From: a virus
Direction: 5' to 3' (one strand)
DNA: 64,000 bases
IMG/VR virus record: IMGVR_UViG_3300017565_000003
In this document: positions 887-56,427 of the stretch, piece by piece
Layout: each line of letters begins with the position of its first letter
How positions within the stretch are numbered: position 1 is the stretch's first letter
The notes under the pieces: model-generated
Databases searched by the model: none
Told to the model about the DNA's origin: nothing
Seen by the model: only the letters and a program-made list of their open reading frames with translations
Made by a program: the position numbers and the translations under genes

Positions 887-919
887 GTTAAAAGCAAGTT
901 TATATAAAGGAGGAGAAAC

Positions 920-1117
920 ATGAAGATAATTACAAAAGATAATTTTTGCAGAGACTTATTTACTGAACAAGTTATTGCGGAAAATGTTAACGAGGTTATT
1001 GGTAAAGAGTTGGTAAAGGAATGGAACGAAAAACATTGGAATCAACACTCTGATTATTACTTAGCTTTAGTTGATGATGAATATGAGCTATATGATGGAT
1101 ATGCTGATTTACTATAA
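920..1117 (+). CDS. small hypothetical protein
   Basis: Strong RBS AAAGGAGG; bounded by palindromic junction sites at 888 and 1114. Confidence 0.7.
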   Translation: MKIITKDNFCRDLFTEQVIAENVNEVIGKELVKEWNEKHWNQHSDYYLALVDDEYELYDGYADLL

Positions 1118-1153
1118 AACTTACTATTTAACTAAAAGAAAAGAGGGAGTAGT

Positions 1154-1798
1154 ATGAAACTTAAACCAAGGTACTATAAGTTTCTGCTCAAAGCTCTCAT
1201 AGGAATTGTACTTTCATTCACACTACTAACTACGTACCGAGCAGCAACATCGGAAAACGAAATTGCACCAACTAGAATTATCCAGCATGATGGACAGATA
1301 TCTAATTCAGAATACATAATTAGCAAGGAATTAATCTTAGGAAAACTTCAGTCAAAGAGTGAAATCGTCTCAGTTGAACAAGAAATTAATAAGACAGATA
1401 CTAAAGTAGATGATGGATTCTTTGGCACAAGGTCGACAGAAATGAACGTCAGTGGTACATATAAAATGGGAATTAGCGTTGAGAACATACATATTACATA
1501 CATAGATAATGACAGTAAAACTGTTTACATAGAGCTAGGAAAACCGGAATTAATTAGCCTTGAGATTCCTTATAGCGAAGTTGATGTAGAAAAAGTTAGC
1601 GGTTGGCTTCGTTTGAGCATGTCAGAGGAAGAAACTAAAAACTTTTATAAGACAGTACATAGCAATATCAAGAAAGAAATACTTAACGACAAAGAAATAA
1701 TGTCACAAGCCAATTTAAACAATCAACGTGTTATCAAGGAATTGATTATCAATCTACCAGGCGTAGAGCAAATTGTTTTCTCGGAGGTGCTACGATGA
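1154..1798 (+). CDS. DUF4230-like membrane-anchored protein
   Basis: N-terminal TM segment; G-x-Y-K-x-G-I and V-x-I-x-L-x-x-P-E-L pattern. Confidence 0.6.
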   Translation: MKLKPRYYKFLLKALIGIVLSFTLLTTYRAATSENEIAPTRIIQHDGQISNSEYIISKELILGKLQSKSEIVSVEQEINKTDTKVDDGFFGTRSTEMNVSGTYKMGISVENIHITYIDNDSKTVYIELGKPELISLEIPYSEVDVEKVSGWLRLSMSEEETKNFYKTVHSNIKKEILNDKEIMSQANLNNQRVIKELIINLPGVEQIVFSEVLR

Positions 1799-1986
1799 AC
1801 TTTAGAGAAGAAGTAAAAATGGCAGTCGAGGAATCATTGAGAGGGTACGGTGCTTCTGAATCAGCAATTAGATTTGCTTTAATCGGAGTTGATACAGGGT
1901 TCTCTGCGGGGACATTAAATGACTCTGAAAGAGAAGTTCAAGTTGACATGTTAAAGGCACTATTAAATACAGAAACAATTAATTAA
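1795..1986 (+). CDS. small hypothetical protein
   Basis: RBS GGAGG, ATGA overlap with upstream stop. Confidence 0.6.
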   Translation: MNFREEVKMAVEESLRGYGASESAIRFALIGVDTGFSAGTLNDSEREVQVDMLKALLNTETIN

Positions 1987-2018
1987 AAGTAAACTAAACA
2001 GTTTTAAAAGGAGTTAAA

Positions 2019-2165
2019 ATGGAAGCGAGTAAGTGCTATGAGTTATTGCAGCAATATGATAAATGTGAAGATTGCCAGACTAAGGATCTTACTGTAGACG
2101 TACATGGAAATGTGTTTATACGAAGTTGTAAATGTGGTTGGAAGATTGAAATTAAAGATAAATGA
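2019..2165 (+). CDS. small Zn-ribbon protein (DUF3797-like), not in ORF track
   Basis: RBS AAGGAG; MEASKCYELLQQYDKCEDC...RSCKCGW, 48 aa. Confidence 0.6.
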   Translation: MEASKCYELLQQYDKCEDCQTKDLTVDVHGNVFIRSCKCGWKIEIKDK

Positions 2166-2259
2166 AAAGTTTGTGAAATTTGAAGTCTGAAAAACGTTGA
2201 TATTGTTAGGTTTTAAAATTGAATTCACAAACTAAATCTAAATAAAAACATACTTTTAT
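2165..2259. repeat. accessory inverted-repeat element (type A) ending in palindromic junction site
   Basis: AGTTTGTGAA (2168)/TTCACAAACT (2224) IR, then ATAAAA-ACATAC-TTTTAT at 2242; same layout at 56332-56427. Confidence 0.75.
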
Positions 2260-3087: not shown

Positions 3088-3243
3088 ATTATAACACAAA
3101 TTTTAAGGAGGTGAGAGCATATCGACATTAATAAATCACCACCAGGCTAGATACAATTAGCTTTTTACCTAGAACACATACAAGTAAAATTAATTATTTA
3201 TAATATAAAAATACAACGGATATTATTAGGAGGAAATACATAT

Positions 3244-4491
3244 ATGGCAAGATTATATAACTCATTTGAATTCATCGGTAACATCAACATTCCAAAGGAT
3301 AAAAGTAAATTCCATGATGTACGTGAGAGTGCATCTGGTTGGGTAGGACACCGATTAAACTTTGGGGTACAAGAATCAAAAACAAACAGCGCATTTGTTG
3401 AGTTGTACGGTGGTTATTCTAAATCAAAGCCTAACAAAGTGTTTACATTCAGTAAAGGAACTGAAAGCGAAAAAGGATCTAAACTTGAGATTCCTTGGGA
3501 TGAGCGTTTAAATCCTGAGACACTCGATATGGTTGCTGACTTCAAAAAGATTGTAGTTGATTTAACGACTGACTTTGAATTGAAAGAAGAAGTTAATCAG
3601 ATCCTTTATCAAATTAGAAGTCTTGAATACCAAGATAAATTAACTCCTGAAGACCAAGAAAAATTATCTTCATTAAAAAAGGAATTAACTGAAAAAGCTG
3701 CTGACCGTCATGAATTCATACATAACTATGATGCAATTGAATTCCTATCTAGCAAACTAGAAGATTATAAGGAATATAAATTTAGATTAACTGGTAGTCT
3801 TGACCTAAGTGCGAATAAAGGTAAGTTCTACCGTAAGTTTAATCCAGAATTAATTGAAATTGTGGAAAATGATACACCTTCGCAACTAAGATCAACTATG
3901 GATATCTTCTTTACTAAAGATGCTGTAGATGACAAAGACTTCAATAAAGAAAAGAAAGTTTTCATTGATGGATATGTACTTGGTTATGACAGTGGAGTTA
4001 AGAAAGATCAGTTCTTCCCAATGCAATTTGTAATCAATGGTCAGAAGTTAGACTTTGAAAATGAAACTCATGTCAAACGTTTTGAATTCCTTAAAAATAA
4101 ATTTAATGTAAAAGGTAAAGGGGTTTACCATCTTCAATGGTTAGTGAATATCTTCCGTGGAGCTGATACGGTAGAGTTTACTGAAAATGATTTAACACCT
4201 CAACAAAAAGAAGCAATTGAATTTGGATTTAATAAACTAGAAGATTTTGCTCCAAAAGGTGGAATGCTTGGGGAAACAGTTTACGAAAATCGACTAGTAA
4301 AACCAACTCTTGAGTTAATTAATGATGCTAATGACTTCAGAGAAGGTGCAGTTGAATCTACATATGAGCTAGACGATTTAGACTTTACATTTGCAGAACC
4401 ACAAAGTAAACCTGCTGAAACAGTTGAAACTAAAACTGAAAGTACTCCTAAAGTAGATATCGACAAAGATTTAGATGACTTGTTTGCATAA
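3244..4491 (+). CDS. YorF-like protein, probable ssDNA-binding protein
   Basis: Position ahead of the AAA ATPase as in SPbeta; acidic C-tail DLDDLFA. Confidence 0.55.
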   Translation: MARLYNSFEFIGNINIPKDKSKFHDVRESASGWVGHRLNFGVQESKTNSAFVELYGGYSKSKPNKVFTFSKGTESEKGSKLEIPWDERLNPETLDMVADFKKIVVDLTTDFELKEEVNQILYQIRSLEYQDKLTPEDQEKLSSLKKELTEKAADRHEFIHNYDAIEFLSSKLEDYKEYKFRLTGSLDLSANKGKFYRKFNPELIEIVENDTPSQLRSTMDIFFTKDAVDDKDFNKEKKVFIDGYVLGYDSGVKKDQFFPMQFVINGQKLDFENETHVKRFEFLKNKFNVKGKGVYHLQWLVNIFRGADTVEFTENDLTPQQKEAIEFGFNKLEDFAPKGGMLGETVYENRLVKPTLELINDANDFREGAVESTYELDDLDFTFAEPQSKPAETVETKTESTPKVDIDKDLDDLFA

Positions 4492-4492
4492 A

Positions 4493-4514
4493 AAGAAGGG
4501 GATTTCCCCTTCTT
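4493..4514 (+). terminator. hairpin/terminator
   Basis: AAGAAGGGGA/TCCCCTTCTT stem right after the stop. Confidence 0.6.
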
Positions 4515-4556
4515 GTAAGTAAAATAAATTAATTATTAAGAGGAGAGATTTATAAT

Positions 4557-6698
4557 ATGGGTAGAAAATTTGGTAAAAAGAATGTAATTAAAATTGATCC
4601 ACTTGCTTATAACGTTGGACTAATTGGAGAATCGGGAATTGGTAAAACAACATTAGCAGTTGAATATTGCGAGCAATTAGCAGGTGAAGATGGATACATT
4701 TTAGCTAACATTGGTAAAGAAGATGGTGTAGATGCTATTCCAAATGCTATTTATGAGAATATTCCTGACTGGGAGACTTTTGAAGAGTTTGTGGAAGATA
4801 TTGTTGAAAATCGTACAACAGATTACAAGGATTTAAAAGTAGTTGTATATGACACTATTGATGAGTTATTCCGTATTGCAGAACCGGAAGTGATTAGATT
4901 ACATAACAAAGCACATCCTGATAAGAAAACTACTTCAATCAAAGCTGCATTTGGTGGATTAACCTTAGCTATATAAGTCCACATATATCAGTAATGGTAT
5001 ATTAGAAAACTTTGTGAACTGTGATTGCAAGCAGGTGTCTATTTAACGATTAGTAACAGTAGGAAATGACTGCTAATAAATAGGCTAACAGGGGAAGCTT
5101 AGTCGTTTAGATATGCTAATCCTGTGGTAAGCATGTTTGATTAGAAATAAATTTAATGGAGGTGGCTAGTTTGCCACGAAAAATAGATGTTGTTATAGGA
5201 GATAAATTTAACAGACTAACGATAATTAAAGATTTGGGGAAAAGACAGGTTGGATCTAGTGGTGAATATCAATATGTATTAGTTGAGTGCGAGTGTGGAA
5301 ACAAACGAGAAATGTCATTTAATGATGTTCGCCAAGGTCACAGTAAGTCTTGCGGTTGTTACAACGTTGAGAAAATTAAAGAAAGAATGACTAAACACGG
5401 TCATTCGAATACAAGATTATATCGCATATGGAAAGATATGAGAAGACGTTGTAATAATCCAAGTAGAAGGAATTATCCAGACTACGGTGGAAGAGGTATT
5501 GAGGTTTGTAGTGAATGGAATAACTTTCAAAGTTTCTACAACTGGTCATTGGAAAATGGATATGAAGAACATTTGACTATTGAAAGAAAAAATGTTGATG
5601 GAAATTATGAACCTGGTAATTGCGAATGGATACCTCGTAAGAAACAGAATGGTAACACTAGAAAAACTAAGCATTTTAAAGCCATTTCCCCAAATGGTGA
5701 AATATATGAAACTAAGAATGTTCGTGAATTTTCACGAGAACATAGCTTAGACAGGAATGAAGTTAGTAACTGTTTGAATAACAAAAGAGATACATATAAA
5801 GGTTGGAAATTTGAATTAATATAAATAACATCTAATCAAACATGAAACTCAAGAGACTATCGAAAGGGTAGCTGAAAAGCGAGTAACCGAGTAGAGTAGG
5901 GTGGATTTTGCTACCACTCGAAGTGCAAAGTATCCCAATGGGATAATGATATAGTCCATGTCCATTAGAAATAGTGGGTAACATGTTATGGCTGGAGAAG
6001 ATAAAGCTATTGAATTAGTATTAGAAAAGATTTGGGAACTGAAATCAGTTGGTGTATCAATGATGATTATCGGACATACAAAACGTAAAAATCAATCAGA
6101 CGTTGCAACTGGTGAAGAATACGAAACACTTACAGCAAACTTAACTAACCGTTACTTCAATGCAATTAAAACTAAATTACATATTCTTGGTGTAGCTTCG
6201 ATTGATCGTTCCATTGAAAAACAACGTATTAAGCAAAAAGTTGGTGCAGACAAGATTGTTGGTAAAATTACAGGCGAAAGTCGAATTATTACATTCCGTG
6301 ATGACAACTTTAACATTGACTCTAAATCACGTTTTAATGAAATTACACCACAAATTGATTTAGATGTAGATCAGTTTAAAGAAGCTGTGGAAGATGCTAT
6401 CAAGAAAGCACATTCTAAACAAAAAGGTGCTAAATCTTTAGATGAGACTAAACAAGAACAACAAAAAGCTAAAGAAGTAGAAATTGAAAAAGTTGTTGAA
6501 GAAACTAATCGTACTAAAGTCAATGCTGAAGAGAATGAAGAGTTAATTGAAGTGATTCAGAATAAATTTGCGAGTGCATCAGATGATGTAAAAGTTAAAG
6601 TAAAAGAAATTATGACTGAATATAAATTCTCATCCTTCAAAGATCCAGAAACTATTTCAACTGTTGCCTTACGTAATATCGTTGAATTAATAGGTTAA
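4557..6698 (+). CDS. YorG-like AAA_24/Sak4-type ATPase, spliced join(4557..4959,5986..6698), 371 aa
   Basis: Walker A GESGIGKT and Walker B VVVYDT in exon 1; splicing gives in-frame AAFGG-F-MAGEDK. Confidence 0.85.
4960..5985 (+). ncRNA. group I self-splicing intron (1026 nt)
   Basis: P1 exon GTGGAT pairs with GTCCAC including U.G at the 5' splice site; R element TCAAGAGACTAT; S element AATGATATAGTCC; P7 GACTAT/ATAGTC; terminal G at 5985. Confidence 0.92.
5171..5824 (+). CDS. intron-encoded HNH/His-Me homing endonuclease
   Basis: RBS GGAGGTG + TTG; CECG..SCGC, YGGRGIEVC..W, TIERKNVDGNYEPGNCEW; enclosed by 14-bp stem CATGTTTGATTAGA/TCTAATCAAACATG. Confidence 0.85.
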   Translation: MPRKIDVVIGDKFNRLTIIKDLGKRQVGSSGEYQYVLVECECGNKREMSFNDVRQGHSKSCGCYNVEKIKERMTKHGHSNTRLYRIWKDMRRRCNNPSRRNYPDYGGRGIEVCSEWNNFQSFYNWSLENGYEEHLTIERKNVDGNYEPGNCEWIPRKKQNGNTRKTKHFKAISPNGEIYETKNVREFSREHSLDRNEVSNCLNNKRDTYKGWKFELI

Positions 6699-6757
6699 TA
6701 ATTTTATAGGGGAGTGTTAATTCATTCCCCTTTTATTTATAAAACGGTGGTGAAATT

Positions 6758-7297
6758 GTGGCTAGAAAAGTAGTGTGTAAGATATGTAAAACAAAAGGTG
6801 AATCAGATAAGTTCTACAAAGTGACTGATGAAAAGGGTAGGAATTCTTATTATTGTTCTCAAGAGGAATATGAAAACTTGATTAATGAGCGATTGAAATT
6901 CAAGAATTTAATGGAATACGTAGCAGTAGAAATTCTTGAATATGAAGATGGTCAAATTGTTCCTCCTTCAATGGTGAAGAAAATAACTAAACTTAATGAG
7001 TTTTATGATTACGATGTGATTCATGAGTGCTTCAAAGTGAATAAAGAAACTATTCAGTACTGGATTAAGGTTAAAGATTTCTCTAGTGAATATGGAATGG
7101 CTAGTTATACTATGAAAATTATAGAGGGGAGTATAAATGACATCTATAACAAATGGAAGTTTAAAAAGCAGCAAGAAGTAAAACAAGAAAATACTTTAGT
7201 AGATTTGAGTTACATTGATCAAATTGAAGATAAACCAACAATTAAAACTAATAATGATACAGGAATCTTGTCATTCTTAGATGAGGAGGACATTTGA
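6758..7297 (+). CDS. YorH-like replication protein (CxxC N-terminus)
   Basis: Position between ATPase and helicase; CKIC...YYCS. Confidence 0.55.
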   Translation: MARKVVCKICKTKGESDKFYKVTDEKGRNSYYCSQEEYENLINERLKFKNLMEYVAVEILEYEDGQIVPPSMVKKITKLNEFYDYDVIHECFKVNKETIQYWIKVKDFSSEYGMASYTMKIIEGSINDIYNKWKFKKQQEVKQENTLVDLSYIDQIEDKPTIKTNNDTGILSFLDEEDI

Positions 7298-8272
7298 TTG
7301 GAGTATCGTGGAATTGAATTATCAGACAGTGTAAATTTATTTAATAAGGATAAACGATCTGGAACAATTAATCAAAGGATAAAAACTAGTTTGGACAAAT
7401 TAATTGATTTATTAAATGTTAATAATCACAAAATCCTAAGTGTATATTTTGGTGAAGATACTAAAATATTAATAGATTTCAATTGTGGTCATGAATCACA
7501 TTGGATTTCACCATCAAAGTATAAACTAGGAAGAGGTTGTCCAGGGTGTGGTAATTTGATTATTTCAGAAAAACAAAATAAACGAGCAAAAGATAAATTT
7601 ATACTATTAGTTGAAAATAATGGACATTTACTTTTAAGTGAGTATATTAATGCTAAATCAAAAATTCTTATAGATTATAATTGTGGACACAAACCCCATT
7701 GGGTTACACCAAATAACTATAAAAAAGAAAACGGAAGTGGATGTCCTAAGTGTTCTGGAAAATGTCCAGAACAAGCAAAAATAAATTTAACTAAATTAAT
7801 AGAATCAAATGGACATGAATTGTTAAGTAATTATGAAAACGCAAATACTAAAGTGCTGATTGAATTTAAATGTGGTCATAGTCCTTATTGGATTTTACCA
7901 AATGGGTATAGAAACGGACGAGGATGTCTTTTGTGTTCAGAATCGAAAGGAGAAAAAAGAGTGAGGGAATGGTTGATTACTAATAACATTCAATTTGATT
8001 CACAAAAAGAATTCGAAGGATTAATGGGTGTTGGGGGAGGGAATTTATCTTATGATTTTTATTTACCAAAACAAAATCTATTGATTGAATATCAGGGTGA
8101 ATTCCATGATGGTACTGCTTTTCAACAAACTGATGAGGAATTTAAAATCCAACAAGAACATGATCTTAGAAAGATGGACTATTCTAAAATAAATAACATT
8201 GAACTACTAGAAATTTGGTATTGGGACTTTGATAATATTGAAGAAATACTTAAACGTGAATTAATTAAGTAA
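7298..8272 (+). CDS. free-standing endonuclease: tandem Zn-ribbon repeats + Vsr/DUF559-like domain
   Basis: 3x CGH..W..P....GxGCPxC; SKGEK..YDFY..IEYQGEFHD. Confidence 0.75.
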   Translation: MEYRGIELSDSVNLFNKDKRSGTINQRIKTSLDKLIDLLNVNNHKILSVYFGEDTKILIDFNCGHESHWISPSKYKLGRGCPGCGNLIISEKQNKRAKDKFILLVENNGHLLLSEYINAKSKILIDYNCGHKPHWVTPNNYKKENGSGCPKCSGKCPEQAKINLTKLIESNGHELLSNYENANTKVLIEFKCGHSPYWILPNGYRNGRGCLLCSESKGEKRVREWLITNNIQFDSQKEFEGLMGVGGGNLSYDFYLPKQNLLIEYQGEFHDGTAFQQTDEEFKIQQEHDLRKMDYSKINNIELLEIWYWDFDNIEEILKRELIK

Positions 8273-8288
8273 AGGAATGTGATTAGGA

Positions 8289-9755
8289 ATGAAACCACTA
8301 GATAGTTATCCTCCAGAATTGACAGCACAAAGAGATCACATGGAAGCAAATTTCATATTCTGCTTATGGAAAAATCCAGAATTATTTTCTGATTATGAAA
8401 AAGAAGTGAGAGCAGATAGAGATTTATTAACAGAAGACGGACGCTTCTATTATTCTCTTGCTTACGAGATGTACAAATTAGGATATAAGAGTTTTGATGA
8501 CGCTAGTATCTTCAGTTATGTTGAAGGTAAAGAAACTCTTAAGAATGGGTTTACCAGAAGGGGTGGTTACAAAACTGTTGATGAAATAAAGAGGATATTG
8601 AATGAGGAGAACATTGAAACTTATTACGATGAATTAGTTAAATTTAATATGCTTCTTAAACTACATGACAAAGGATTTAATGTAGTTAATGAGATTGATA
8701 AGTTTAAGAAAATGACAAGTGTTCAACTGTACGATTACTTTGAATACCAGTTGGACAATGTATTCTTAAATCGTGGAAATGGTGTAAAAATTGAGGACTT
8801 AGACTTTAATGATGACTTCATAGAAGCTTGTGATGCTGGAGAGGAAATGGGATTAAGTTATGCGGCAGCATGTCCTTTATTAAACTTTCACACTTTAGGT
8901 TTACATAGATCAAATGTACAAATATTTGCAGGATTTAGTGGAACTGGTAAGACAAGTTTTTGCATTAATTCATACATATTATCAATACTTGATCAAGGTG
9001 AAAACGTTACAATCATTGCTAATGAGATGAATAAACGATCTTGGCAACATATATTAATGGCCACAATCTTGAGTCAAAAGTTAGATTATTATGGTCTACC
9101 ACGAAAGAAGCAGAAAATGGGTAATTTAGCAGCTGAACAAAAAGAGAAGATGGAAGAAGCTAGAGAATATTTTAACGAACACTATAAAGGTAGGCTCAAA
9201 TTTGCAAAGATATATGATTACAGTACTGAAGATGTTAAAAAGATCATTAGAAAGATGGCTAAACAAGGTTTTAAATATGCGTTGTACGACACTTTTAAGA
9301 GTGAGGATTCATCTTCTGCACAAATGACTGGTGAATTGATTGAGTCGTCTAAACAATTACTTCAGGTGGCTGAAAAAGAAGATGTAGGAATTATCATAAC
9401 AATGCAGTTGGCAATTTACATGGAAAATACACGATATCTTACAGCAGCATGTTTATCTGGTGCAAAAGGAGTTAAAGAAATTGTTTCCGAATTAGTATTG
9501 ACTAGACAAGTTTGGGAGGATGAATTTAACGGGGAGAAGTATGATATCAAGCCATATAGATACAAGAAAGATTCAAATGGTAAATTCACAAAAATAAAAG
9601 AAGAAATTACATTAAAGCATGATAAAAAGTATATGATTCTATTCTTAGATAAAACAAGGAATGATGAGGGAGATACCACACTGCTTTATCAGTTTGATGG
9701 TGCTTGGAATAAATGGACTGAAATAGGTTATTGTACACCAAAGCATCAACGGTAG
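8289..9755 (+). CDS. DnaB-like replicative helicase (YorI-like)
   Basis: GFSGTGKT Walker A, YDTFK, MQL, KTRN motifs. Confidence 0.85.
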   Translation: MKPLDSYPPELTAQRDHMEANFIFCLWKNPELFSDYEKEVRADRDLLTEDGRFYYSLAYEMYKLGYKSFDDASIFSYVEGKETLKNGFTRRGGYKTVDEIKRILNEENIETYYDELVKFNMLLKLHDKGFNVVNEIDKFKKMTSVQLYDYFEYQLDNVFLNRGNGVKIEDLDFNDDFIEACDAGEEMGLSYAAACPLLNFHTLGLHRSNVQIFAGFSGTGKTSFCINSYILSILDQGENVTIIANEMNKRSWQHILMATILSQKLDYYGLPRKKQKMGNLAAEQKEKMEEAREYFNEHYKGRLKFAKIYDYSTEDVKKIIRKMAKQGFKYALYDTFKSEDSSSAQMTGELIESSKQLLQVAEKEDVGIIITMQLAIYMENTRYLTAACLSGAKGVKEIVSELVLTRQVWEDEFNGEKYDIKPYRYKKDSNGKFTKIKEEITLKHDKKYMILFLDKTRNDEGDTTLLYQFDGAWNKWTEIGYCTPKHQR

Positions 9756-9763
9756 GTGAGCAT

Positions 9764-10786
9764 ATGGATGTTTATACACTTAAGAATTACATAATGAGTA
9801 AACCGGATTATATAGAGTTAATTCTCGAAAAAACTGGATTTTATTATATAGAGTATAACAAACGAAAAGGGGAATATAGATGCGCTAGAGAAGAAGGGAG
9901 GAACCCTACTTCTGTTAGAGTTGACAAACATACTTTATCTGCAACTTGTTTTTCAACTAACTTAAAAGGTGATCTAATCACTCTAGTTCAGGGTAAATTA
10001 AACACTTCTTTTCCTAAAACAATAAGGAAAATTGCTGATATTGTTGAGTTTAAAGATGTTGAAAAACAAGAGGAATATACACTACCGTTTGGTGGTTTTT
10101 ATAAGAAGATTGCTAAATTAAAAGATGATGACTATCTTGATGTTGAAACTTATTCTGACAATATCCTAGATCGTTTTGAAAAAATTCCTAATATGTTGTT
10201 CTATGAAGATGGTATCTTACCTCAAGTTCAACGAAGATATAACATTGGGTACGATTCAACTACAACTAGAATTAGTGTTCCCTGGTACAGTTTAGATGGA
10301 AGAATATGTGGAGTTATGGGGAGGTTGAATAAAAGGGAAGTGTCAGAAGATGAAACTAAATGGTTTCCGATAATTCCTTTTCCAAAATCAAAAACACTGT
10401 ACGGATTTATCGATAACTATAATTCCATTCAAGAAAAGTCTATTGTAATGATTGGTGAATCTGAAAAGCACAGTTTACAGCTATCAAGTAAAGGATTGAA
10501 TGTGGGTATTTCATTGGGTGGAAGTTTCATGAGTGAAGTTCAAGCGAATCACATTAAGTCACTGTTTCCAGAAAAGATAATTGTCATGATGGATGAAGGA
10601 CTTGAACAGGATCATAGCTACGAAATAGCAAAACAATTAAAGTCAGATAAATATTACAAGAATAAAGTAGGATACATATATGACAAAAACAATCTTTATC
10701 TACAAAAGGATAGTAAAATCGCTCCTGCTGACTTAGATAAGGATACATTACAGAGGTTAATTAGGGATTGTACAATTTGGATTTAA
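9764..10786 (+). CDS. DNA primase (YorJ-like, TOPRIM)
   Basis: RISVPW..GR, IGESEK, MDEG motifs; follows helicase. Confidence 0.8.
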   Translation: MDVYTLKNYIMSKPDYIELILEKTGFYYIEYNKRKGEYRCAREEGRNPTSVRVDKHTLSATCFSTNLKGDLITLVQGKLNTSFPKTIRKIADIVEFKDVEKQEEYTLPFGGFYKKIAKLKDDDYLDVETYSDNILDRFEKIPNMLFYEDGILPQVQRRYNIGYDSTTTRISVPWYSLDGRICGVMGRLNKREVSEDETKWFPIIPFPKSKTLYGFIDNYNSIQEKSIVMIGESEKHSLQLSSKGLNVGISLGGSFMSEVQANHIKSLFPEKIIVMMDEGLEQDHSYEIAKQLKSDKYYKNKVGYIYDKNNLYLQKDSKIAPADLDKDTLQRLIRDCTIWI

Positions 10787-10798
10787 GGAGATGATGGA

Positions 10799-11881
10799 TT
10801 GAGAGCTGAAGATAAATTACAGGAGTTAAAAGATGCTGGAATTAAAGTGTATTCATTTTCTAAATTAGGCTCATTCATTAATTGTGAATTTGAATATTAT
10901 AATAGCTACATTCTCAAGAATCGAGGTGTAGAAAATGTCTATACGTTATTGGGAAGTTGTATACATAATAATTTAGAGGATATTTACAGTGGAAGTGGAG
11001 ATAAATCATCTTTTAAAACTAACTATACAGATAAATTAATCGAATTAGAAATGTCGGGAATTACCTTTCCCAATGATAAGATAGGTGACAGTTATAAAGC
11101 TGATGTACTTCATTTTGTTGAAAACTTTAACAAACTTAATACTAAAATGATACAGGAGCAATTGATCGTTTTTGAAATAGCAGATGGAATATGGATGCAA
11201 GGTTATATTGATGCAATTATTCCAAGTGAAAAAGGTAATCCATTCGTTAATATCATTGACTGGAAAACATCGAGTAAATTCTCAGGTAAAAAGTTAAATG
11301 AAGCAGGAAGACAGTTATTAATGTATAAGATTGGCCTTGAAGCAACTACAAATAAGAAAGTGGATAAAGTCATGTGGTGTATGGTTAAATACATCAATGT
11401 TTGTAGTATGCAAAAGAACGGTAAAGTTAAAAAGAAAATGTGTAATCGTGGAAAATGGGTTAAAGAACTTACAAAGCAATTGGAAAAAGATTTACATACA
11501 TTGAGTATAGATGAATTTGAACTTGAGTTATTACTAGACAAAGCAATTAGTGATAACAATCTCGAATCTTTACCAAAAGAAATTCAAGATAAATACTGGT
11601 TGGAAGATTGTTATGTGGAATATGAGATTACTGATGAGAAAGTTGAAGAATTCAAAAAGCATGTAGTTGATACTGTCAATGAAATCGAAAATAAGGATAA
11701 AGAAAATGAAGATGTTTGGGAAGCTGTTGAAATAAGTAAATTTAACTCATTTTATTGCAGCACTCTATGTGGTCATCGAAAAACGTGTAAACATTACAAA
11801 AAGTTTCTTGAAGAAAATGCCGATGGATTTGATAAAAAGGACAAGAAAAATGAAATTGACTTTGATGACTTGTTTAAATAA
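10799..11881 (+). CDS. PD-(D/E)XK exonuclease, Cas4/AddB-like with 4-Cys staple
   Basis: SFSK..C; GYIDA..IIDWKTS; QLLMY; C-terminal C-x3-C-x5-C. Confidence 0.8.
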   Translation: MRAEDKLQELKDAGIKVYSFSKLGSFINCEFEYYNSYILKNRGVENVYTLLGSCIHNNLEDIYSGSGDKSSFKTNYTDKLIELEMSGITFPNDKIGDSYKADVLHFVENFNKLNTKMIQEQLIVFEIADGIWMQGYIDAIIPSEKGNPFVNIIDWKTSSKFSGKKLNEAGRQLLMYKIGLEATTNKKVDKVMWCMVKYINVCSMQKNGKVKKKMCNRGKWVKELTKQLEKDLHTLSIDEFELELLLDKAISDNNLESLPKEIQDKYWLEDCYVEYEITDEKVEEFKKHVVDTVNEIENKDKENEDVWEAVEISKFNSFYCSTLCGHRKTCKHYKKFLEENADGFDKKDKKNEIDFDDLFK

Positions 11882-11913
11882 TAAGTGAATTATACATAAA
11901 TTGAGGTGATGAT

Positions 11914-12444
11914 GTGGAGGAGATTTGGAAAGACATTGAAGGATATGAAGGTCTTTATCAGGTTAGTAATTTTGGCAGGGTTAAATCATTGAATAGAATC
12001 ATTGATAAATACCATCATGTAAAAGAAAGAATATTAAAACATCAAATTGACAGAAAAGGTTATCATACTCTTATGCTATCAAAAGATAATAAACAAAAAA
12101 GGTATGAAATACATAGATTGTTTGGGTTGACATTTATTTCTCAAGAATGTGAATGTTTCAATCATAAAGATGGTAATAAAGATGACAATAGTGTTAGTAA
12201 TTTAGATGCAGCAACTTTTTCAGAAAACATCAATCATGCTGTTGATATATTAAAAAATCATGGAAGAGCATTATGTGTAACTATAGAAGACAAAGAAGGT
12301 AAGAAGTTTGAATTCGGATCTATGAGTAAGGCTGAAAAATTCTTAAATAAGAGTTCACATTGGTTAAAATGGAGACGAAATAAATATGGTAACAAGTTTG
12401 TATATGAAGATTTTAAAATAGAAATAAAGGGGAAGTCTTCGTGA
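11914..12444 (+). CDS. NUMOD4-HNH homing endonuclease
   Basis: EIWKDIEGYEGLYQVSNFGRVKS; HRL..NHKDGNKDDN..NL. Confidence 0.9.
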   Translation: MEEIWKDIEGYEGLYQVSNFGRVKSLNRIIDKYHHVKERILKHQIDRKGYHTLMLSKDNKQKRYEIHRLFGLTFISQECECFNHKDGNKDDNSVSNLDAATFSENINHAVDILKNHGRALCVTIEDKEGKKFEFGSMSKAEKFLNKSSHWLKWRRNKYGNKFVYEDFKIEIKGKSS

Positions 12445-14225
12445 GAAAAATATTTTATGATTTCGAGGTTCTTTCAAATCTTAAAACTGCTACTGGTCAA
12501 TCTTTTTGGCTAGTAGTGTTAATTGACTATGATAGTGGTAAAGGTAAGGTAATTGAAAATGATTTAGACATGTTAAAAAAATACTACAATCTTTTTAAAA
12601 ATGATGTATTCATTGGATACAATAGTAGACAATATGATCAATATATTTTTAAAGGATTACTATTGGGAATGGACGCAGGTTATATTAATGATAGGCTAAT
12701 AGTAGATGGAATCAAAGGTCACAATATTGTAAAAGATGCTTGGAAAATTCCTTTTAATAATTTCGATGTAACTACTGGTTTTCATAGTTTAAAACAATTG
12801 GAAGGATTTTTAGCAAGTAGAATTAAAGAATCGTCAGTGCCTTTTACCATAGATAGATCATTAACAGACCAGGAGATGCAAGAAATTACAGACTACTGTA
12901 TATACGATGTAAAACAAACAATTGAAGTTTTTGACAATAGAAAAGAAGAATACGAGAGTCAATTATCTTTATTAAATGCTTTTAATTTGGATATGAAGTA
13001 TTTCAATAAAACTAAAGCTCAATTATCGGCACATATTCTTGGAGCAGAAAAGCATCCAAATAGGGGAGATGAATTTGATTTTAGTTTCCCTGATACTTTG
13101 AGGGTTTCAGAAAAATATAAGCATATTGTAGATTGGTACAAAGATCCTGAAAATAGAGACTACAGCAAAAAGTTAAAAGTAGATGTAGCAGGAGTTCCAC
13201 ATGTCTTTGCCTTTGGAGGAATTCACGGTGCTCTACCTAAATATAAAGACGAAGGAATCATTCTATGCTGCGATGTAGCTTCATTATATCCTTCTTTAAT
13301 GATTGAGTATGGATACATTAGTAGAAATGTAAGAGATCCTTTGAAATACACTCAAATTAGGGATACACGTTTAGAGTTAAAACGTAAAAAAGACCCTACG
13401 CAATTACCTTACAAAATCGTACTTAACGCAACGTATGGGGCTATGAAAGATCAATATAACCCTTTGTATGATCCATTGATGGCCAACAATGTTTGTTTAG
13501 CTGGTCAGTTGTTATTACTTGACTTGATTGAAAAAATTGAGCCATATTGTAAACTAATTCAATCAAATACAGATGGAGTTTTCATGAAGGTTGAAAAAGA
13601 ATCTGATATTGATGTTATTAAAGAAGTTGCTAAGGAATGGGAACAGAGAACACGTTTAGATTTAGAATGGGAAGTTTTTGATAAGATCTATCAGAAAGAT
13701 GTAAATAACTATGTAATTATTGATAAAGATGGTAAGTACAAATCTAAAGGCGCTTATGTTAAGAAGCTAAACAACCTTGATTATGATCTACCTATTGTCA
13801 ATAAAGCACTGATTAACTACTTCACAAAGGATATTCCGGTTGCTAATACAATTAACGAATGTGATGAATTAAGAGATTTTCAAAAAATTGTTAAAGTATC
13901 AAGTAAATATAAACATGCATTACATGGTGAAAAGAAGTTACCTGAAAAAGTATTACGTGTGTTTGCTTCCAAGGATGAAAATGCACCAGGAGTATTTAAG
14001 GTTAAATGGAAAGTGAAAGATGGAATTGAACAGGATGTAGCTGAGAAAATAGGAAATACGCCTGAACGCTGCTTCATTAACAACGACAATATTAAAGGGA
14101 CAAAGGTTCCCGATGAATTAGATAAGGAATATTATATAGAGATGGCACAGAAGAGGTTAAATGATTTCTTAGGAATCTCCAATAGAAAGAAAAAGAAGTC
14201 TAAAAAAGATGAGGAAAAAGCTTAA
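12441..14225 (+). CDS. family B DNA polymerase with 3'-5' exonuclease
   Basis: FYDFE/GYN..YD exonuclease motifs; DVASLYPS, K-x3-N-x2-YG, NTDG. Confidence 0.9.
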   Translation: MRKIFYDFEVLSNLKTATGQSFWLVVLIDYDSGKGKVIENDLDMLKKYYNLFKNDVFIGYNSRQYDQYIFKGLLLGMDAGYINDRLIVDGIKGHNIVKDAWKIPFNNFDVTTGFHSLKQLEGFLASRIKESSVPFTIDRSLTDQEMQEITDYCIYDVKQTIEVFDNRKEEYESQLSLLNAFNLDMKYFNKTKAQLSAHILGAEKHPNRGDEFDFSFPDTLRVSEKYKHIVDWYKDPENRDYSKKLKVDVAGVPHVFAFGGIHGALPKYKDEGIILCCDVASLYPSLMIEYGYISRNVRDPLKYTQIRDTRLELKRKKDPTQLPYKIVLNATYGAMKDQYNPLYDPLMANNVCLAGQLLLLDLIEKIEPYCKLIQSNTDGVFMKVEKESDIDVIKEVAKEWEQRTRLDLEWEVFDKIYQKDVNNYVIIDKDGKYKSKGAYVKKLNNLDYDLPIVNKALINYFTKDIPVANTINECDELRDFQKIVKVSSKYKHALHGEKKLPEKVLRVFASKDENAPGVFKVKWKVKDGIEQDVAEKIGNTPERCFINNDNIKGTKVPDELDKEYYIEMAQKRLNDFLGISNRKKKKSKKDEEKA

Positions 14226-14302: not shown

Positions 14303-14995
14303 ATCAAGTTAAACAATAAAGATAAACTAATCATACTTATAATATTCGTAAATATAGTCGTAGCAGCATACATACTAACAAATTTACTACAGTCAGATTC
14401 AAAAATTGACGAAAATGAGCAAGAAAATGAAGTCTCAATAAAAGAGAAAATTTATTTAGAGTTAAACGGATGGCTTATAGAACCTTATGAGCCATCTCCA
14501 ATCAATAATCTAAGAAAAGGTCAACAATTAGCATTACAGAACACATTAGATAAATACAAAGCAGCTAGACAAAAACAGGATAGATTAGCAGAGTTAGAAA
14601 GACAAAGGAAACTAGAAGAAGAAAGAAAAAGGAAGGAGGCGGAGAAACGTGAAAAAGCGAAACAAGTTAGCAGGAGTAATCAGAAAGAACGTCAAAGAAT
14701 TAATGCTGTCGTTACCAGTTATACAAATGGCGTAGAGTCAACAGGGAAATCACCTGGTCATCCTGCATATGGAATTACTGCAAGTGGACGAAAAACAGAG
14801 AGAGGTGTAACAGTCGCTTGTCCTCCTTACATTGAACTTGGAACATGGGTAGTTATTGAGAATGTAGGAAAACGAAGATGCGATGATCGTGGAAGCGATA
14901 TTATAGGAAATAGATTTGATGTCTATATGAAGTATTTAGATAATGCTATTAATTTCGGAAGACAAGAACTAGAAGTGATTATACTGGAGGGATGA
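14303..14995 (+). CDS. YorM-like 3D-domain cell-wall protein, ATC start, not in ORF track
   Basis: RBS AAGGAGTGA; 230 open codons; TM anchor, coiled coil, GITASG..DDRG..RFDVY. Confidence 0.85.
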   Translation: MKLNNKDKLIILIIFVNIVVAAYILTNLLQSDSKIDENEQENEVSIKEKIYLELNGWLIEPYEPSPINNLRKGQQLALQNTLDKYKAARQKQDRLAELERQRKLEEERKRKEAEKREKAKQVSRSNQKERQRINAVVTSYTNGVESTGKSPGHPAYGITASGRKTERGVTVACPPYIELGTWVVIENVGKRRCDDRGSDIIGNRFDVYMKYLDNAINFGRQELEVIILEG

Positions 14996-17194: not shown

Positions 17195-17369
17195 GTTTAC
17201 TAATAGGAGTTATTATTGGAATAGTTTTACGAATGGTATTTGATTGCATAATATCTATGTATAAACATTCAAAAATTAACTAAATATACATTAATTATAC
17301 ATATATTATGAATAAATATACACTAATTTCAACATAAAATGATTGTTTTAAAGAGAGGAGAGAGAATAA

Positions 17370-18548: not shown

Positions 18549-18605
18549 ATTATACATAACTAAATAAAATAATCGTTTCATTAAAACTTTAAAAGGAGAG
18601 ATTAA

Positions 18606-38566: not shown

Positions 38567-40183
38567 TCAAGGGTTGATGATTAAATCATATCTTAAAAGA
38601 GGTACAATATAAAATTCCGCAGGGGTTCTTCCTCTACCCTTTTTAGTTACTGTAACAGATACTTCTTCAAAAGTAGATCTTAATAATTTATTTTTTCTCT
38701 CCTTACTTTTTAGCCTTGTGTAACTGTCTAATACGTTTTTTATATGTGTACGTATTTTATCAATTGAAACTTGCTCATCCTCTAATTCAGGTGTCTCTAA
38801 ATGATCCATTGATAATTTCAATTCTTGTTGTTCTTTATCTAAGGCTGATTTCCGTTCAATAAACATTTCATCAGTGTAAATACCCAATTCATATTTTTCA
38901 TAAATAAAGTTCAATCTGTCCTTGATTTCTTTCTCTTTATTCTTTATTTGCTCTAACATTTGCTCTTTAGATTGCGAATTAGAATTTTCCTTTTTCCTTT
39001 TAACAATATCTAATAAATATTCTTTAAGATCCAAATCATCCATATCACGAATCTCCTTTAAAGCATCAAGGACAGCATCTTCAACATCTCTATATTTAAC
39101 ACTCATACAATTGCCTCTAAGGCACTTAAGAAATTCTTTATAATAAATTACTTCACTGTCATCTTTACGCTTATATTTCTGTCTCTGAGCATTACGAATT
39201 AGTTTTCCCCCACATACTGAACAAGTACAGACAGATGCTAGCTCATTTGGTGCAAAATCTAATGGGTTATGGGGGAGGGAAAGCTTATTCTTAATCTTAT
39301 CTTGCACCTTTTCCCAATAATCTTTTTCAATAATTGGTTCGTGTGCATCCTCTACATATATATGTTCAGACTTAGGTCGTTCAATACGCTTACCTTCTTT
39401 GTTTCGTTCATGTGTACGATACTTAATTACACCTTTGTACAAGTCATTCGTGAGTATTTTCTTAACTTGAGTATAACTCCATACCTTTTTACCTTTAGCA
39501 GTCTTAATACCTATGTTAGATAGGTGAGTAGCAATTGCTTGATAACTTACTTCCTGTCCATTTAAACCGGTCATGAACAAGTCATAAATTAATCTAATTG
39601 TCTTTGCCTCATCCTCATTGATTTCTAATCTTTGAGTTTTTTTATTGTAAGAGTATCCAATTGGTGTCGCCCCCGACATCCACTTGCCTTGTGAGCTATA
39701 TAAAGCTCTTGCACCAACCATACGTTCCTTTATCATTTCATACTCTTCACGAGCCAAGAACAACTCGAAACGAATAGACCTATGATCATTTGTATTTCTA
39801 ATATCATATATTCTCGTAGGAGTAATAACTAATAAGCGATTATCTCTGAGAAGGTTGATAACTCTGTCTGCATCCCCCATATTACCCCTCGACAAACGAG
39901 AGAGTTCTTTGACTGCTATTGCTTGGAACTTACCTGATTCTAACTCACCAATAGCTTGTTGAAAAATCGGCCTGCCTGAAATTGAGTCGCCCGAACCTAT
40001 TTCTTGGTATAGTTCATATGGTGTTTCTAGATTATCAAGTGTACCAGTCATTAGAGTCTTCTGTTCACTTAAAGTATCCTCACCTGTACGCTTCTCTCGT
40101 TCTATATCTTGACGAGACTTACGAATATATCCCAGCACTTTTGTTACTCCATGTGCTTTTACTATGTCTTTTAGATTAAACAA
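38567..40183 (-). CDS. large serine recombinase (SprA-like integrase)
   Basis: YIRKS catalytic Ser, SRLSR, recombinase domain, CSVCG Zn ribbon, coiled coil; RBS AAGGAGTGA + TTG at 40183. Confidence 0.93.
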   Translation of the reverse strand: MFNLKDIVKAHGVTKVLGYIRKSRQDIEREKRTGEDTLSEQKTLMTGTLDNLETPYELYQEIGSGDSISGRPIFQQAIGELESGKFQAIAVKELSRLSRGNMGDADRVINLLRDNRLLVITPTRIYDIRNTNDHRSIRFELFLAREEYEMIKERMVGARALYSSQGKWMSGATPIGYSYNKKTQRLEINEDEAKTIRLIYDLFMTGLNGQEVSYQAIATHLSNIGIKTAKGKKVWSYTQVKKILTNDLYKGVIKYRTHERNKEGKRIERPKSEHIYVEDAHEPIIEKDYWEKVQDKIKNKLSLPHNPLDFAPNELASVCTCSVCGGKLIRNAQRQKYKRKDDSEVIYYKEFLKCLRGNCMSVKYRDVEDAVLDALKEIRDMDDLDLKEYLLDIVKRKKENSNSQSKEQMLEQIKNKEKEIKDRLNFIYEKYELGIYTDEMFIERKSALDKEQQELKLSMDHLETPELEDEQVSIDKIRTHIKNVLDSYTRLKSKERKNKLLRSTFEEVSVTVTKKGRGRTPAEFYIVPLLRYDLIINP

Positions 40184-40657
40184 ACTATCACTCCTTTTGC
40201 GAATGCTAATAATTATGTCAGATAATAAATTATTATATTTCACATTAGCAAAAGTATCAATGATTTTATTTGTGTTTATTAGATAAATTTAATTATGAAT
40301 AGTTTAGTGTGATAAAGGGAGGGAGAAGTGAAGGGAGTTGAAGGAAGTTATACGGTAGGGGAGAGGTGATAATATAATTATGTAAAGTAGATAATTCCAA
40401 GTGGATAAACGCCAGTTTAGACGCTTGACCAAGCATTTAGACGCTCTTGTTCTTTGTCTTAAATGTGCGGTAGGATGTTTTGTTGAGGGTTATAATTGGG
40501 GAAAGCTCAGTTTACAAAGAACGTAAACTTCACCTTGCATTTCCCCAAACCCCATTGCACATAGACTTTTAATAATTGATAAAAAATTGCGGTTTCAATC
40601 TACTAGTATGTACTATAAGGTTTATATAATAGAAGAGAGAAACCGCAAAATTTTAAT

Positions 40658-43127: not shown

Positions 43128-43246
43128 AGAGGATAGGACGCTGAAACCCTTGGTACGTAAGGCTTCGTAGCACCTAATCCTCTAAATAGTTGAAAACGCT
43201 GAATTTACCTCATTTTTATTAAGTTAAGATAAAAACCCGAATTTAT
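43128..43246. repeat. accessory element (type B) ending in palindromic junction site
   Basis: AAACCCTTGGTA at 43144, exactly 85 bp before the site at 43229; same at 49490/49575. Confidence 0.7.
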
Positions 43247-45528: not shown

Positions 45529-45705
45529 AAAATCATCTCCTTAATAGGAATAAAAAAAGAGACCTCATCTCTGAAGTCTCATGTAAATATTTCTAAATAA
45601 AATTTAATTTTTATCTTGATGAATAAAAGGGTGGGCGAGAGGGATAATAAGTTTTAACATTCTATCACCGCACCTTAGAAGAGGGAGAGGTAAAAGTCTC
45701 CCTAA

Positions 45706-49425: not shown

Positions 49426-49592
49426 ATAAAACATGAATTTTATCCTGACTTTATTTAAGAAGAGTAGGGGAGAGGGGAATAGAGGCTCAAAACCCTTGGT
49501 ATATAAGGGATTGAGAAACTAATTCTCCTAAACTCCCAATATTACTGATTTTTACTCAATTTTCATGTTTCTAGATGAAATTGTAGTTTTAT
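49426..49592. repeat. gene-less unit: two palindromic junction sites around a type B accessory element
   Basis: ATAAAA-CATGAA-TTTTAT (49426), ATGAAA-TTGTAG-TTTTAT (49575); AAACCCTTGGTA..TAAGGG inside. Confidence 0.7.
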
Positions 49593-50799: not shown

Positions 50800-50987
50800 T
50801 ACAAATTCCTCCTTAAAATTTTATAAATATAAAAAAAGAGAAGTAGGGGATTAATCTACTTCTCCATGAAACAAATGATTTATGCAATTTTTATACATTT
50901 CTTAATGTGAAATTACACAATTTTATTACTTCGGAATTTTATCCAATTGCGTGTTACTTAATTGCGTATGTTGAAACAAGATAACAA

Positions 50988-51991: not shown

Positions 51992-52004
51992 AATTAACCT
52001 CCGA

Positions 52005-54854: not shown

Positions 54855-54855
54855 A

Positions 54856-56064
54856 TTAATTGACCTCCTTTGAACTGCTTTTTCTTTTTACTAACCATTG
54901 TTCAAACTGAAACAAGGTGTTGTCTCCATAGCCATATATATATTGTGGAAAGAATCTTTATCTTTTGTGTGGCATTTATCACAAAGAGTTATACCATTGT
55001 TCACATTAATTCTTTTTTCTTTACACCAGTTGTACCCGTCTAAATGATGGGCGTTTAAATTTCCTCCTGAATCATCTCCACAACACTGACAAGTATAATT
55101 GTCACGTTGGTAAACTTTTAAACGCCATTCAGAGTATCCTGTCACATTTCTACCAATCTCTCTCTTCTTTTGTGAGAGTATGATTCCACCTAGAATGATT
55201 TTTTCCTCTATTTCTATCAATAAAACAATTTCTACATCTTCTTCCATTTATAAACGCATGTAGTTTTATTTTACTTTCATTACCACAGGCACAAATATAT
55301 CTAAGATTATCATTACTGGAAACATAAGTATCATTTAATAGAACACAGTTGTTTTCTTTAAATACTCTTTTTACAAATTCGATATCATATTTAAGGTTTG
55401 CATTTCTTAATTTTTCAGATCTACAATAACTACATCTATGTCCTCTCATAAAGTTTTCTAAATTTATTGTATCTTGGTTTCCACATTCACATAAGTAATC
55501 TAAGTTCTGACGTATATTTTTGTAATCATTGGATAGTAAAATGCAATCATTTTCCTTGAAAATTTTTCTGACTTCTTCAATTGACTTTCTTAAACGTTCA
55601 GCATTTTTTTGAATGGAGCACATTTTACATCCGTACCCTTTTAAAAGACTTTTAATGGTTAGTTTATCTTCATGTCCTTTGTTGCAAATATATCTATGAG
55701 GTATTTTGTACCCTAAATATTCCTCTTCTAATAGAATGTAATCTTTCTTTTCAAATTCCGTTTTTACTTCTTCGAAAGAATATTTGGTTCTCTTTTTAGC
55801 CCCTTTAATACTTTTACATTCCATGCAAGCATCGCTAGTTGAACCGTCTTTTTTTGATTTATTATATTCACGAAAAGCCTTAAGAATTTTGTTACCACAA
55901 AAATCACATATAACTTGTATTGAAATTGTAGAATTTGGTGAAAGATCGAAAATGTCTATTTCTAATTCACTGTGAATTTTAGTAAACTCATAACCTTTAT
56001 CGATTAATCGTTTTTTATTATTGTTATTCCATTTAATATTTACTTTTTGAGGTAATATTAACAT
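54856..56064 (-). pseudogene. Zn-repeat + HNH endonuclease with two frameshifts
   Basis: Frame breaks in (GA)n near 55160 and (AT)n near 54938; corrected frame gives RDNYTCQCC..AHH..NGITLC..CH..FHNIYGYG. Confidence 0.75.
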
Positions 56065-56113
56065 TTGAAAAACACTCCGTTTTTGAATAATTTATATATG
56101 AATGATAAAATTG

Positions 56114-56305
56114 TTAAAGATGGTCTTTGTGGTATTCCATAAAACTGTCGTAATTGCTAATTGCTTTTCTCAATTCGTCTGAATCATTAAATATAAAGAC
56201 ATTCATTTTGTGATTATGCTTGGATTTTTCCATTTTCTTTAAGGTAAAGCCCGATAAGGCTAGATAGCCTGCCACTTTCTGATTGAAAACAACTATTTTT
56301 TTCAA
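56114..56305 (-). CDS. small DUF5659-like protein
   Basis: VFNQKVAGYL..GF.LK.MEKS..NVFIFN. Confidence 0.65.
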   Translation of the reverse strand: MKKIVVFNQKVAGYLALSGFTLKKMEKSKHNHKMNVFIFNDSDELRKAISNYDSFMEYHKDHL

Positions 56306-56331
56306 TAAAGCAACCTCCTTACAAAAAATAA

Positions 56332-56427
56332 AAAAGTTTGTGAAATTTTAGTGTGTTAAAACCCTTATAAATAGTGAGTTTCACAAACTAATTCACAAAC
56401 TTTTTCTTAATAAAAGTCGTATTTTAT
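56332..56427. repeat. accessory IR element (type A) ending in palindromic junction site
   Basis: AAAAGTTTGTGAAATTT identical to 2165-2181; TTCACAAACT at 56392; ATAAAA-GTCGTA-TTTTAT at 56410. Confidence 0.75.

Follow-up and report, generated by a model that had tools for sequence, protein, structure and literature searches.

Why should short palindromes of one form be scattered between the genes of a phage, and do they mark joints at which accessory genes are exchanged? The question is raised by a 64,000-nucleotide stretch of viral DNA (IMG/VR record IMGVR_UViG_3300017565_000003; "the window" hereafter means this entire stretch), which is part of a large SPbeta/Tsamsa-like siphophage and in which copies of ATAAAA-N6-TTTTAT recur. 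An original prediction had taken them for dif/Xer-like sites of an integron-like system that adds, removes or reorders gene cassettes. What we observe directly is a motif of fixed spacing, restricted to phage DNA, with homology breakpoints at the edges of its copies, centres that are collinear between relatives and two published laboratory junctions at sites. We lean towards reading the sites as protein-recognised dyads that act as joints for cassette exchange between sites of the same centre. The predicted cassette system is partly supported, as exchange at the same address and not as integron-style reordering.

The strict core of the motif is the 16-mer TAAAA-N6-TTTTA, and ATAAAA-N6-TTTTAT is the perfect 18-mer. 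All six perfect copies of the original prediction are confirmed (Table 1) and, as it had proposed, the motif is enriched over background: shuffles of the whole window give 0.21 perfect 18-mers, and in intergenic DNA with 12-bp margins we count 5 perfect copies compared to 0.024 expected. One-mismatch copies number 7 in the same intergenic set (0.74 expected), and all 7 of the window are intergenic. Two-mismatch copies are weakly enriched in intergenic DNA (12 compared to 6.7) but show no enrichment for the window overall (37 compared to 37.9); being barely above background, they make degenerate copies unacceptable on the core alone. The spacing is strict: in the window, TAAAA-Nk-TTTTA has a single sharp peak of 7 copies at k = 6, whereas other values of k give 0 to 2.

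A flank matrix trained on 70 sites, all from other phages, has the consensus T-Y-T-n-n-A-TAAAA-N6-TTTTA-T-n-n-A-R-A and recovers the 11-6-11 flank symmetry that had been noticed in the window. Arm information reaches position -5/+22, is strict only in the inner 5–6 bases and does not differ between the two sides, whether the consensus is symmetrised or raw; base identity of the arms is conserved, not pairing. With this matrix all six perfect copies score in the top 1% of intergenic background. Most of the proposed degenerate copies hold up as well (1114, 17334, 18564, 21466, 24829, 43229, 49575, 50866 and 25563 in the top 2%, 19645 at 4%), whereas 888 and 34467 receive no support; the matrix adds 14438, 3151, 43080 and 51673. 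Core and flank scoring together support about 20 sites in the window.

Each of these sites has a centre different from all others, and no credible copy lies inside the replication block (3244–14225) or the nrd-thy block, both as originally described. Most sites sit between a stop codon and the next ribosome-binding site (RBS). Each of the methyltransferase, DUF444 and lysin-like genes has a site on either side, and they form arrays of apparently promoterless single-gene cassettes; this part of the prediction, together with the recombinase-site-like architecture (dyad arms, fixed 6-bp spacer), is borne out.

The motif is a phage-specific, family-wide signature. SPbeta carries 13 perfect 18-mers and 34 perfect 16-mers (control 2), nearly all intergenic and with the same flanks, and its sites occur between convergent and divergent genes too. 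With the count of a reversed-pattern control in brackets, 16-mers number 23 (3) in Tsamsa, 25 (1) in Kirov, 31 (2) in PJN02 and 23 (6) in BcoS-136. The 4.5-Mb genome of B. rugosus has 72 compared to 40 in the control; many of its listed sites are in an SPbeta-like prophage, which shows SPbeta centres in SPbeta order. Motif density in the Bacillus host chromosome is at background level only. Given that the motif is phage-specific, its reader is probably a product of the phage. Searches of the literature turned up no publication that describes the motif.

The sites coincide with gene replacement in relatives. We compared SPbeta (82–127 kb) with phi3T, Goe11, SPbetaL4 and SPR, a group chosen because close relatives exist. 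Eleven of the 62 clusters of high-scoring segment pair ends lie at most 5 bp from a perfect site, where random intergenic positions would give 3.3 (p about 2e-4), and a breakpoint is present in 11 of the 13 site-bearing gaps compared to 22 of the 54 other gaps (p = 0.005). The original prediction had suggested testing whether breakpoints of gene gain and loss in SPbeta-like relatives fall in the 6-bp centre. Breakpoints of gain, loss and replacement coincide with sites, and homology begins or ends where the 16-mer meets its flank. The phages have the entire site in common, centre included, and either flank may be unrelated. The centre AGACTG, for example, is combined with two distinct left flanks and three distinct right ones. 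A methyltransferase cassette of SPbeta is swapped at sites 113664 and 115044, in parallel with the site-bounded methyltransferase cassettes of the window.

The centres themselves persist. Across 19 SPbeta sites and the four relatives, the exact 16-mer is kept in 49 of 76 comparisons, with 40-bp flanks homologous on both sides in 10, on one side in 21 and on neither in 18; the corresponding numbers for control intergenic 16-mers are 1275, 99 and 24. Shared centres (10–14 of the 15–17 sites per relative) are collinear, with 0 order inversions in the four relatives. Tsamsa and Kirov, which belong to different subfamilies and have genes 67–85% identical, share 8 identical 16-mers, again collinear and with both 40-bp flanks unrelated, where chance would give below one by a rough estimate. 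With centres that are position-specific and strictly collinear between relatives, the predicted reordering does not hold; nor does the predicted tolerance of non-matching overlaps, exchange apparently taking place between sites of identical centre.

Published laboratory recombinants offer a further view of the sites. Supplementary Table 1 of Dragos et al. gives 16 SPbeta/phi3Ts homology junctions and one non-homologous junction in evolved recombinants; long homology was used in 15 of the 16, and the motif is unmentioned (10.1101/2020.05.06.055103). With the genome coordinates of that study calibrated on junction 8, junction 7 ("30 bp"; SPbeta NC_001884 69424, phi3Ts MT366945 62416–62446) is a 31-bp island made of a TAAAA-TGCATA-TTTTA site, and the DNA to its left and right is unrelated. 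The sole non-homologous junction (N1) falls at SPbeta 116423, inside the centre TATTCC of the site at 116415, and its phi3Ts end is the end of a coding sequence, 15 bp from the phi3Ts site of the same centre (107397–107412). Two of the 17 junctions coincide with sites, with identical centres in both parents; the deposited hybrids Hyb1-3 have long-homology junctions, so these two short ones were checked by coordinates alone.

For the window's own lineage, megablast against deposited phages gives zero nucleotide-level matches. The closest relatives in viral, genome and metagenome scans reach at best about 66–79% protein identity, and only a 4.3-kb contig (L004) is informative. Contig L004 is 79% identical in a YomG-like tail gene and then 98% identical over 129 bp; this stretch starts about 12 bp before site 56410 and has the same centre with an unrelated left flank. 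It is followed by a 1.5-kb indel with far ends that lie away from sites. In protein comparisons, the replication block of three IMG/VR relatives is intact and site-free, with flanking genes that are unrelated and site-rich. No centre of the window is in common with the locus G001, and in other loci, besides 56410, only low-complexity or out-of-position matches were found. Exact 18-mer scans of viral contigs returned 3, 21 and 25 matches, a few of them in motif-rich contigs but with no neighbouring protein homology, which is about chance. As a separate observation, a repeat of about 75 nt with inverted arms AGTTTGTGAAAT ... AATTCACAAACT is found at 2166–2241 and 56331–56405, adjoining two perfect sites 54 kb apart; its 56-kb copy forms part of the 129 bp at 98% identity to L004, the neighbouring gene being at 79%.

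How might such joints work? As dyad-symmetric recognition sites in double-stranded DNA, they would probably be read by a paired phage protein. Related phages would swap single genes or small blocks at arms of the form T-Y-T-n-n-A-TAAAA around a spacer of exactly 6 bp. With arms common to all sites and a position-specific centre, exchange would be productive only at equivalent positions, and genes to the left or right of a site would be replaced with no change in gene order. Exchange at the level of the arms between different centres would be rare and would lead to cassette gain or loss. Some protein would catalyse or stimulate the exchange, and the presumed catalyst is a family-conserved protein of the tyrosine-recombinase fold, YopP-like or YomM-like, encoded outside the window.

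Every motif-bearing relative examined encodes two or three tyrosine-recombinase-type proteins, with YopP- and YomM-like proteins conserved in each. Only 13 open reading frames (ORFs) of SPbeta are conserved in both Tsamsa and Kirov, including YomM, YopP and YopR (recombinase fold). YopR, also called MrpR, is already accounted for by another repeat, SPBRE (below). YopP has a XerC-superfamily domain and no function is given for it in PMC8612738 or PMC10516654; YomM is absent from the MrpR paper (PMC10516654). The first (box-I) Arg, His and Tyr are retained in both families. The original prediction saw no tyrosine recombinase in the window, and the Pfam scan agrees. The window ORF 40658–41710, considered as a YomM-like recombinase, has no similarity to it and belongs to PHROG 36702, a family of unknown function. 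The same-centre joints and collinear centres are as expected for a lox/FRT-like core site, as far as sequence comparison goes and short of proof of spacer-dependent strand exchange. Taken to its full extent, the reading is that large SPbeta-, Tsamsa- and Kirov-like Bacillus siphophages may share a natural, genome-wide heterospecific site set in which a YopP/YomM-like protein pairs sites of the same centre, leading to order-preserving gene swaps between co-infecting or resident relatives; this fuller picture is tentative, and we hold it at somewhat less than even confidence.

Several observations weigh against exchange at the sites. Most breakpoint clusters (51 of 62) are away from perfect sites, and the replacement of the 's' fragment that turns phi3T into phi3Ts ends away from sites. 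No recombinase has so far been linked to the sites: PF00589 is missing among the window ORFs scanned, and the second catalytic Arg is Lys in SPbeta YopP and YomM (Arg in others), a change that may reduce or abolish activity. Lacking close relatives, centre conservation in the window's lineage comes down to one site, and the laboratory junctions are positioned by tabulated coordinates, not by deposited junction sequences. Site density and mosaicism could both be mere properties of accessory regions, and persistence of the centres would also follow from ordinary or relaxed homologous recombination at islands of 16–30 bp.

This last point is developed by a serious rival explanation, in which the sites are regulatory or architectural docking sites, operator- or stoperator-like, of a dimeric phage DNA-binding protein that perhaps has a recombinase fold with lost catalysis, like MrpR. 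They would become mosaic joints only passively, as the sole conserved islands between fast-turnover genes, recombined by phage annealing and exonuclease functions or by RecA. The conservation of base identity instead of pairing in the arms, the frequent position between a stop codon and the next RBS and the Lys of SPbeta YopP and YomM all speak for such docking, as do the general recombination functions encoded in the window (Sak4-like, PD-(D/E)XK nuclease, RusA) and the long homology behind 15 of the 16 laboratory homology junctions. A precedent within the family is a protein of the tyrosine-recombinase fold that has become a repressor and has dispersed sites (PMC10516654). Nevertheless, the 6-bp centres, which a pure operator would leave unrecognised, have survived in order with both flanks replaced, even between phage subfamilies; docking does not explain this unless recombination depends on the site. 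SPbeta sites are also found between convergent or divergent genes, and although islands of 16–30 bp offer very little length for efficient homologous recombination, 2 of the 17 laboratory junctions are on sites. On balance we consider docking possible, though rather unlikely. Were it true, the motif would be an undescribed regulon-like site common to several phage subfamilies.

The remaining explanations appear far less probable. A nuclease could cut within the N6 centre in the manner of restriction enzymes of interrupted palindromes, leaving site-specific overhangs, with a ligase rejoining compatible ends from co-infecting genomes, and shuffling would again be ordered and address-specific; by inference only, an interrupted palindrome with a free N6 and order-preserving centres would fit, SPbeta-group phages encode DNA ligases and the window encodes several HNH and PD-(D/E)XK nucleases. 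However, no nuclease is associated with the sites, none is among the 13 conserved ORFs except a RecJ-like exonuclease, and about 30 double-strand cuts in the phage's own genome would be hazardous, making this scheme very improbable. We give equally little credence to a hijacking of the host XerC/XerD-type machinery (CodV/RipX), as with plasmid pdif modules. The 28-bp layout (arms of about 11 bp, 6-bp centre) fits that of dif and would dispense with a phage tyrosine recombinase in the window, but the two arms mirror each other and cannot be told apart as XerC and XerD halves, no link to a dif sequence emerged, the density in the host chromosome is at background and phages that infect different host species carry one and the same motif. 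To our knowledge, the arms are also unlike Bacillus dif. Membership of the Xer/dif class, the original label, is unsupported. The least credible explanation is an intercistronic hairpin acting at the RNA level on mRNA processing, stability or translation: sites lie just upstream of RBSs inside operons, but the hairpins are marginal, sequence and not pairing is conserved, and a position between convergent or divergent genes is not what this explanation would predict.

Other known elements do not account for the motif. An intrinsic terminator is unlikely: the stems are A-U only, the predicted folding of 0 to -4.5 kcal/mol is in many cases matched by shuffled sequences, and variants break the pairing (A-C mismatches, TTTTAA forms) with no compensation. 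A PeSL-type (promoter early stem-loop) regulatory cassette does not fit either, there being no stable stem; after some sites (22113, 2242) the RBS follows within 3–6 nt, which leaves no room there for a -10 box and start site. For the YonO late promoter, one start site is known, upstream of yonK, and no motif site is present there. The integron-like part of the prediction fails on membership, as there is no intI (no PF00589 in the window ORFs scanned), attI or cassette promoter Pc, and no folded site of the attC type: the sites are dyads of 16–28 bp with negligible folding energy.

SPBRE was the identity that we initially expected. It is the 15-bp operator of MrpR/YopR, a repressor of the tyrosine-recombinase fold in SPbeta, and all ten peaks of MrpR in chromatin affinity purification sequencing (ChAP-seq) were assigned to SPBRE promoters (PMC10516654). 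Like our motif, it is a dispersed intergenic repeat of the SPbeta family. Unlike the motif, it has a non-palindromic core, ATATGTATA, occurs at about 10 promoter sites, is bound by MrpR and serves in repression (PMC10516654). The core shared by the ten published SPbeta SPBRE promoters, AATATGTATA, is unrelated to the motif. Binding by a repressor without recombination, which the original prediction had named as an outcome to its disadvantage, therefore applies, in the case of MrpR, to SPBRE and not to TAAAA-N6-TTTTA. In the window, a separate 11-mer, ATTATACATAA, is near the reverse complement of the SPBRE core ATATGTATA and has four exact copies (at 11889, 18549, 19629 and 21446), three of which are 4–9 bp upstream of sites bounding methyltransferase cassettes. 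Allowing one mismatch, the enrichment is marginal (13 compared to 7.2). ATTATACATAA may, from its resemblance, be an MrpR-type operator of the window's phage.

One parallel comes from genome engineering. Heterospecific lox and FRT sites, used with Cre and Flp for recombinase-mediated cassette exchange, are engineered 13-8-13 sets with a known enzyme. As in those sets, inverted arms surround a short spacer that would decide on partners, and exchange between like sites would swap DNA with the order unchanged. By contrast, the phage sites are natural, 5(11)-6-5(11) in layout, number about 20–35 per phage genome and are known from comparison and two mapped laboratory junctions. With integron cassettes they have in common promoterless single genes bounded by short palindromic sites in an operon-like string. 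The attC sites, however, are imperfect, 57–141 bp long and recombined as folded single strands, and integron cassettes can reorder and have no positional address, whereas the phage sites are perfect dyads of 16–28 bp with position-specific centres in fixed order.

The pdif sites of Acinetobacter plasmids are 11-6-11 sites with distinct XerC and XerD arms and alternating orientation, used by host Xer. They too flank small accessory modules in varied contexts, in contrast to a motif that is phage-specific, symmetric in its arms and at background in the host chromosome. PeSL cassettes of T4-type phages are regulatory units of promoter and terminator that recombine by homology. They resemble our sites as short repeated intergenic elements of plastic early regions, for which modular shuffling between phages has been proposed; the phage motif differs in lacking a stable stem and in its strict dyad, fixed spacing, site-specific centres and promoterless nature. 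Stoperators of cluster A mycobacteriophages, finally, are likewise tens of short sites in intergenic DNA and bind a phage protein. They are asymmetric, 13–14 bp long and oriented with transcription, lack a variable centre and are not known to be associated with mosaic breakpoints.

The sites are set in a genome of two arms (Table 1). The plus-strand early arm contains the replication block, three DNA methyltransferases, nrd-thy genes, an RNA-repair trio and RusA, and the minus-strand late arm encodes YomG-like, Dit-like and fibre-like proteins, a YomI-like tape measure (SLT and M23) and a lysin-like protein. Within the replication block, a Sak4-like gene for single-stranded DNA annealing is split into ORFs 4557–4976 and 5988–6698, with an HNH endonuclease ORF (5156–5824) in between. 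The two parts adjoin in the relatives L022 and L019, where an HNH homologue is elsewhere in the block, so that the arrangement in the window resembles an insertion of a mobile HNH gene. The block also encodes a family-B-like polymerase (12441–14225) with 76–77% protein identity to that of prophages of B. rugosus and B. glycinifermentans. Since the B. rugosus prophage otherwise carries SPbeta centres in SPbeta order, replication modules move between quite distant family members. Elsewhere, an ORF resembling homing endonucleases (HNH_3 and AP2 domains; 30009–30803) is directly 3′ of the nrdF-like gene within the otherwise conserved nrd-thy block. The RNA-repair trio (34514–37543) consists of a T4 Rnl1-like RNA ligase, an RlaP-like nucleotidyltransferase and a Pnkp-like kinase with HD phosphatase, and may be a counter-measure against host anticodon nucleases. 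A paralogous pair (14997–16085, plus strand; 42017–42841, minus strand) combines CapR homology, a DUF4379 zinc ribbon and DUF2726, with one member in each genome arm.

Table 1. Motif sites and selected genes of the window.
Feature	Position	Strand	Remarks
Two-mismatch copy	888..905		Indistinguishable from chance
Degenerate site	1114..1131		Overlaps stop codon of 65-aa ORF; flank-supported
Perfect site, centre ACATAC	2242..2259		1 bp before next ORF, RBS directly after; flank score in top 0.1%
Degenerate site	3151..3168		In spacer just upstream of conserved replication block
One-mismatch site	14438..14455		Best flank score of window; 212 bp after replication block; absent from original prediction
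Perfect 16-mer TAAAA-TGATTG-TTTTA	17334..17351		18-mer with 1 mismatch
One-mismatch site	18564..18581		Left edge of C5 methyltransferase cassette
Degenerate site	19645..19662		Right edge of C5 methyltransferase cassette; moderate flanks, top 4%
Perfect site, centre TTTACA	20690..20707		Abuts upstream stop codon; precedes D12 methyltransferase cassette
Degenerate site, 1 mismatch in 16-mer	21466..21483		Right edge of D12 methyltransferase cassette
Perfect site, centre CGAGAG	22113..22130		3 nt before RBS
One-mismatch site	24829..24846		Left edge of DUF444 (YhbH-like) cassette
Degenerate site, 2 mismatches in 16-mer	25563..25580		Right edge of DUF444 cassette; strong flanks
One-mismatch copy	34467..34484		Before RNA ligase gene; flanks unsupportive, top 18%
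One-mismatch site	43229..43246		Between minus-strand genes
Perfect site, centre TTTAAT	45597..45614		Between minus-strand late genes
Perfect site, centre CATGAA	49426..49443		Overlaps start end of minus-strand ORF 49102-49434
One-mismatch site	49575..49592		Beside gene for peptidoglycan-binding lysin-like protein
Degenerate site	50866..50883		Other side of lysin-like gene; flank-supported
Perfect site, centre GTCGTA	56410..56427		Only window site with same-centre partner in a relative (L004)
Conserved replication block	3244..14225	+	Syntenic in relatives, site-free; sites and non-homologous genes on both sides
C5 cytosine DNA methyltransferase	18606..19628	+	Single-gene cassette between two sites
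D12-class N6-adenine methyltransferase	20738..21469	+	Single-gene cassette between two sites
Large serine recombinase, SprA-like integrase	38567..40243	-	Sole site-specific recombinase of window; action on 5-6-5 palindromes not expected

Phage mosaicism, a problem of long standing, is usually ascribed to illegitimate recombination followed by selection, or to relaxed homologous recombination. If our preferred reading of the sites as joints for same-centre exchange is true, addressed joints would be a third, programmed route to gene-sized mosaicism. In the fuller picture, with a YopP/YomM-like protein pairing the sites, viruses would possess a gene-cassette system of a new class, nature's own equivalent of recombinase-mediated cassette exchange. 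The orphan core genes yopP and yomM would gain functions, and genome engineering a ready-made set of orthogonal sites. A direct test is feasible in the best-studied member of the family, SPbeta of B. subtilis, together with phi3T. For the SPbeta-like phages themselves, such joints would explain the easy movement among them of anti-defence, methyltransferase and other accessory genes.

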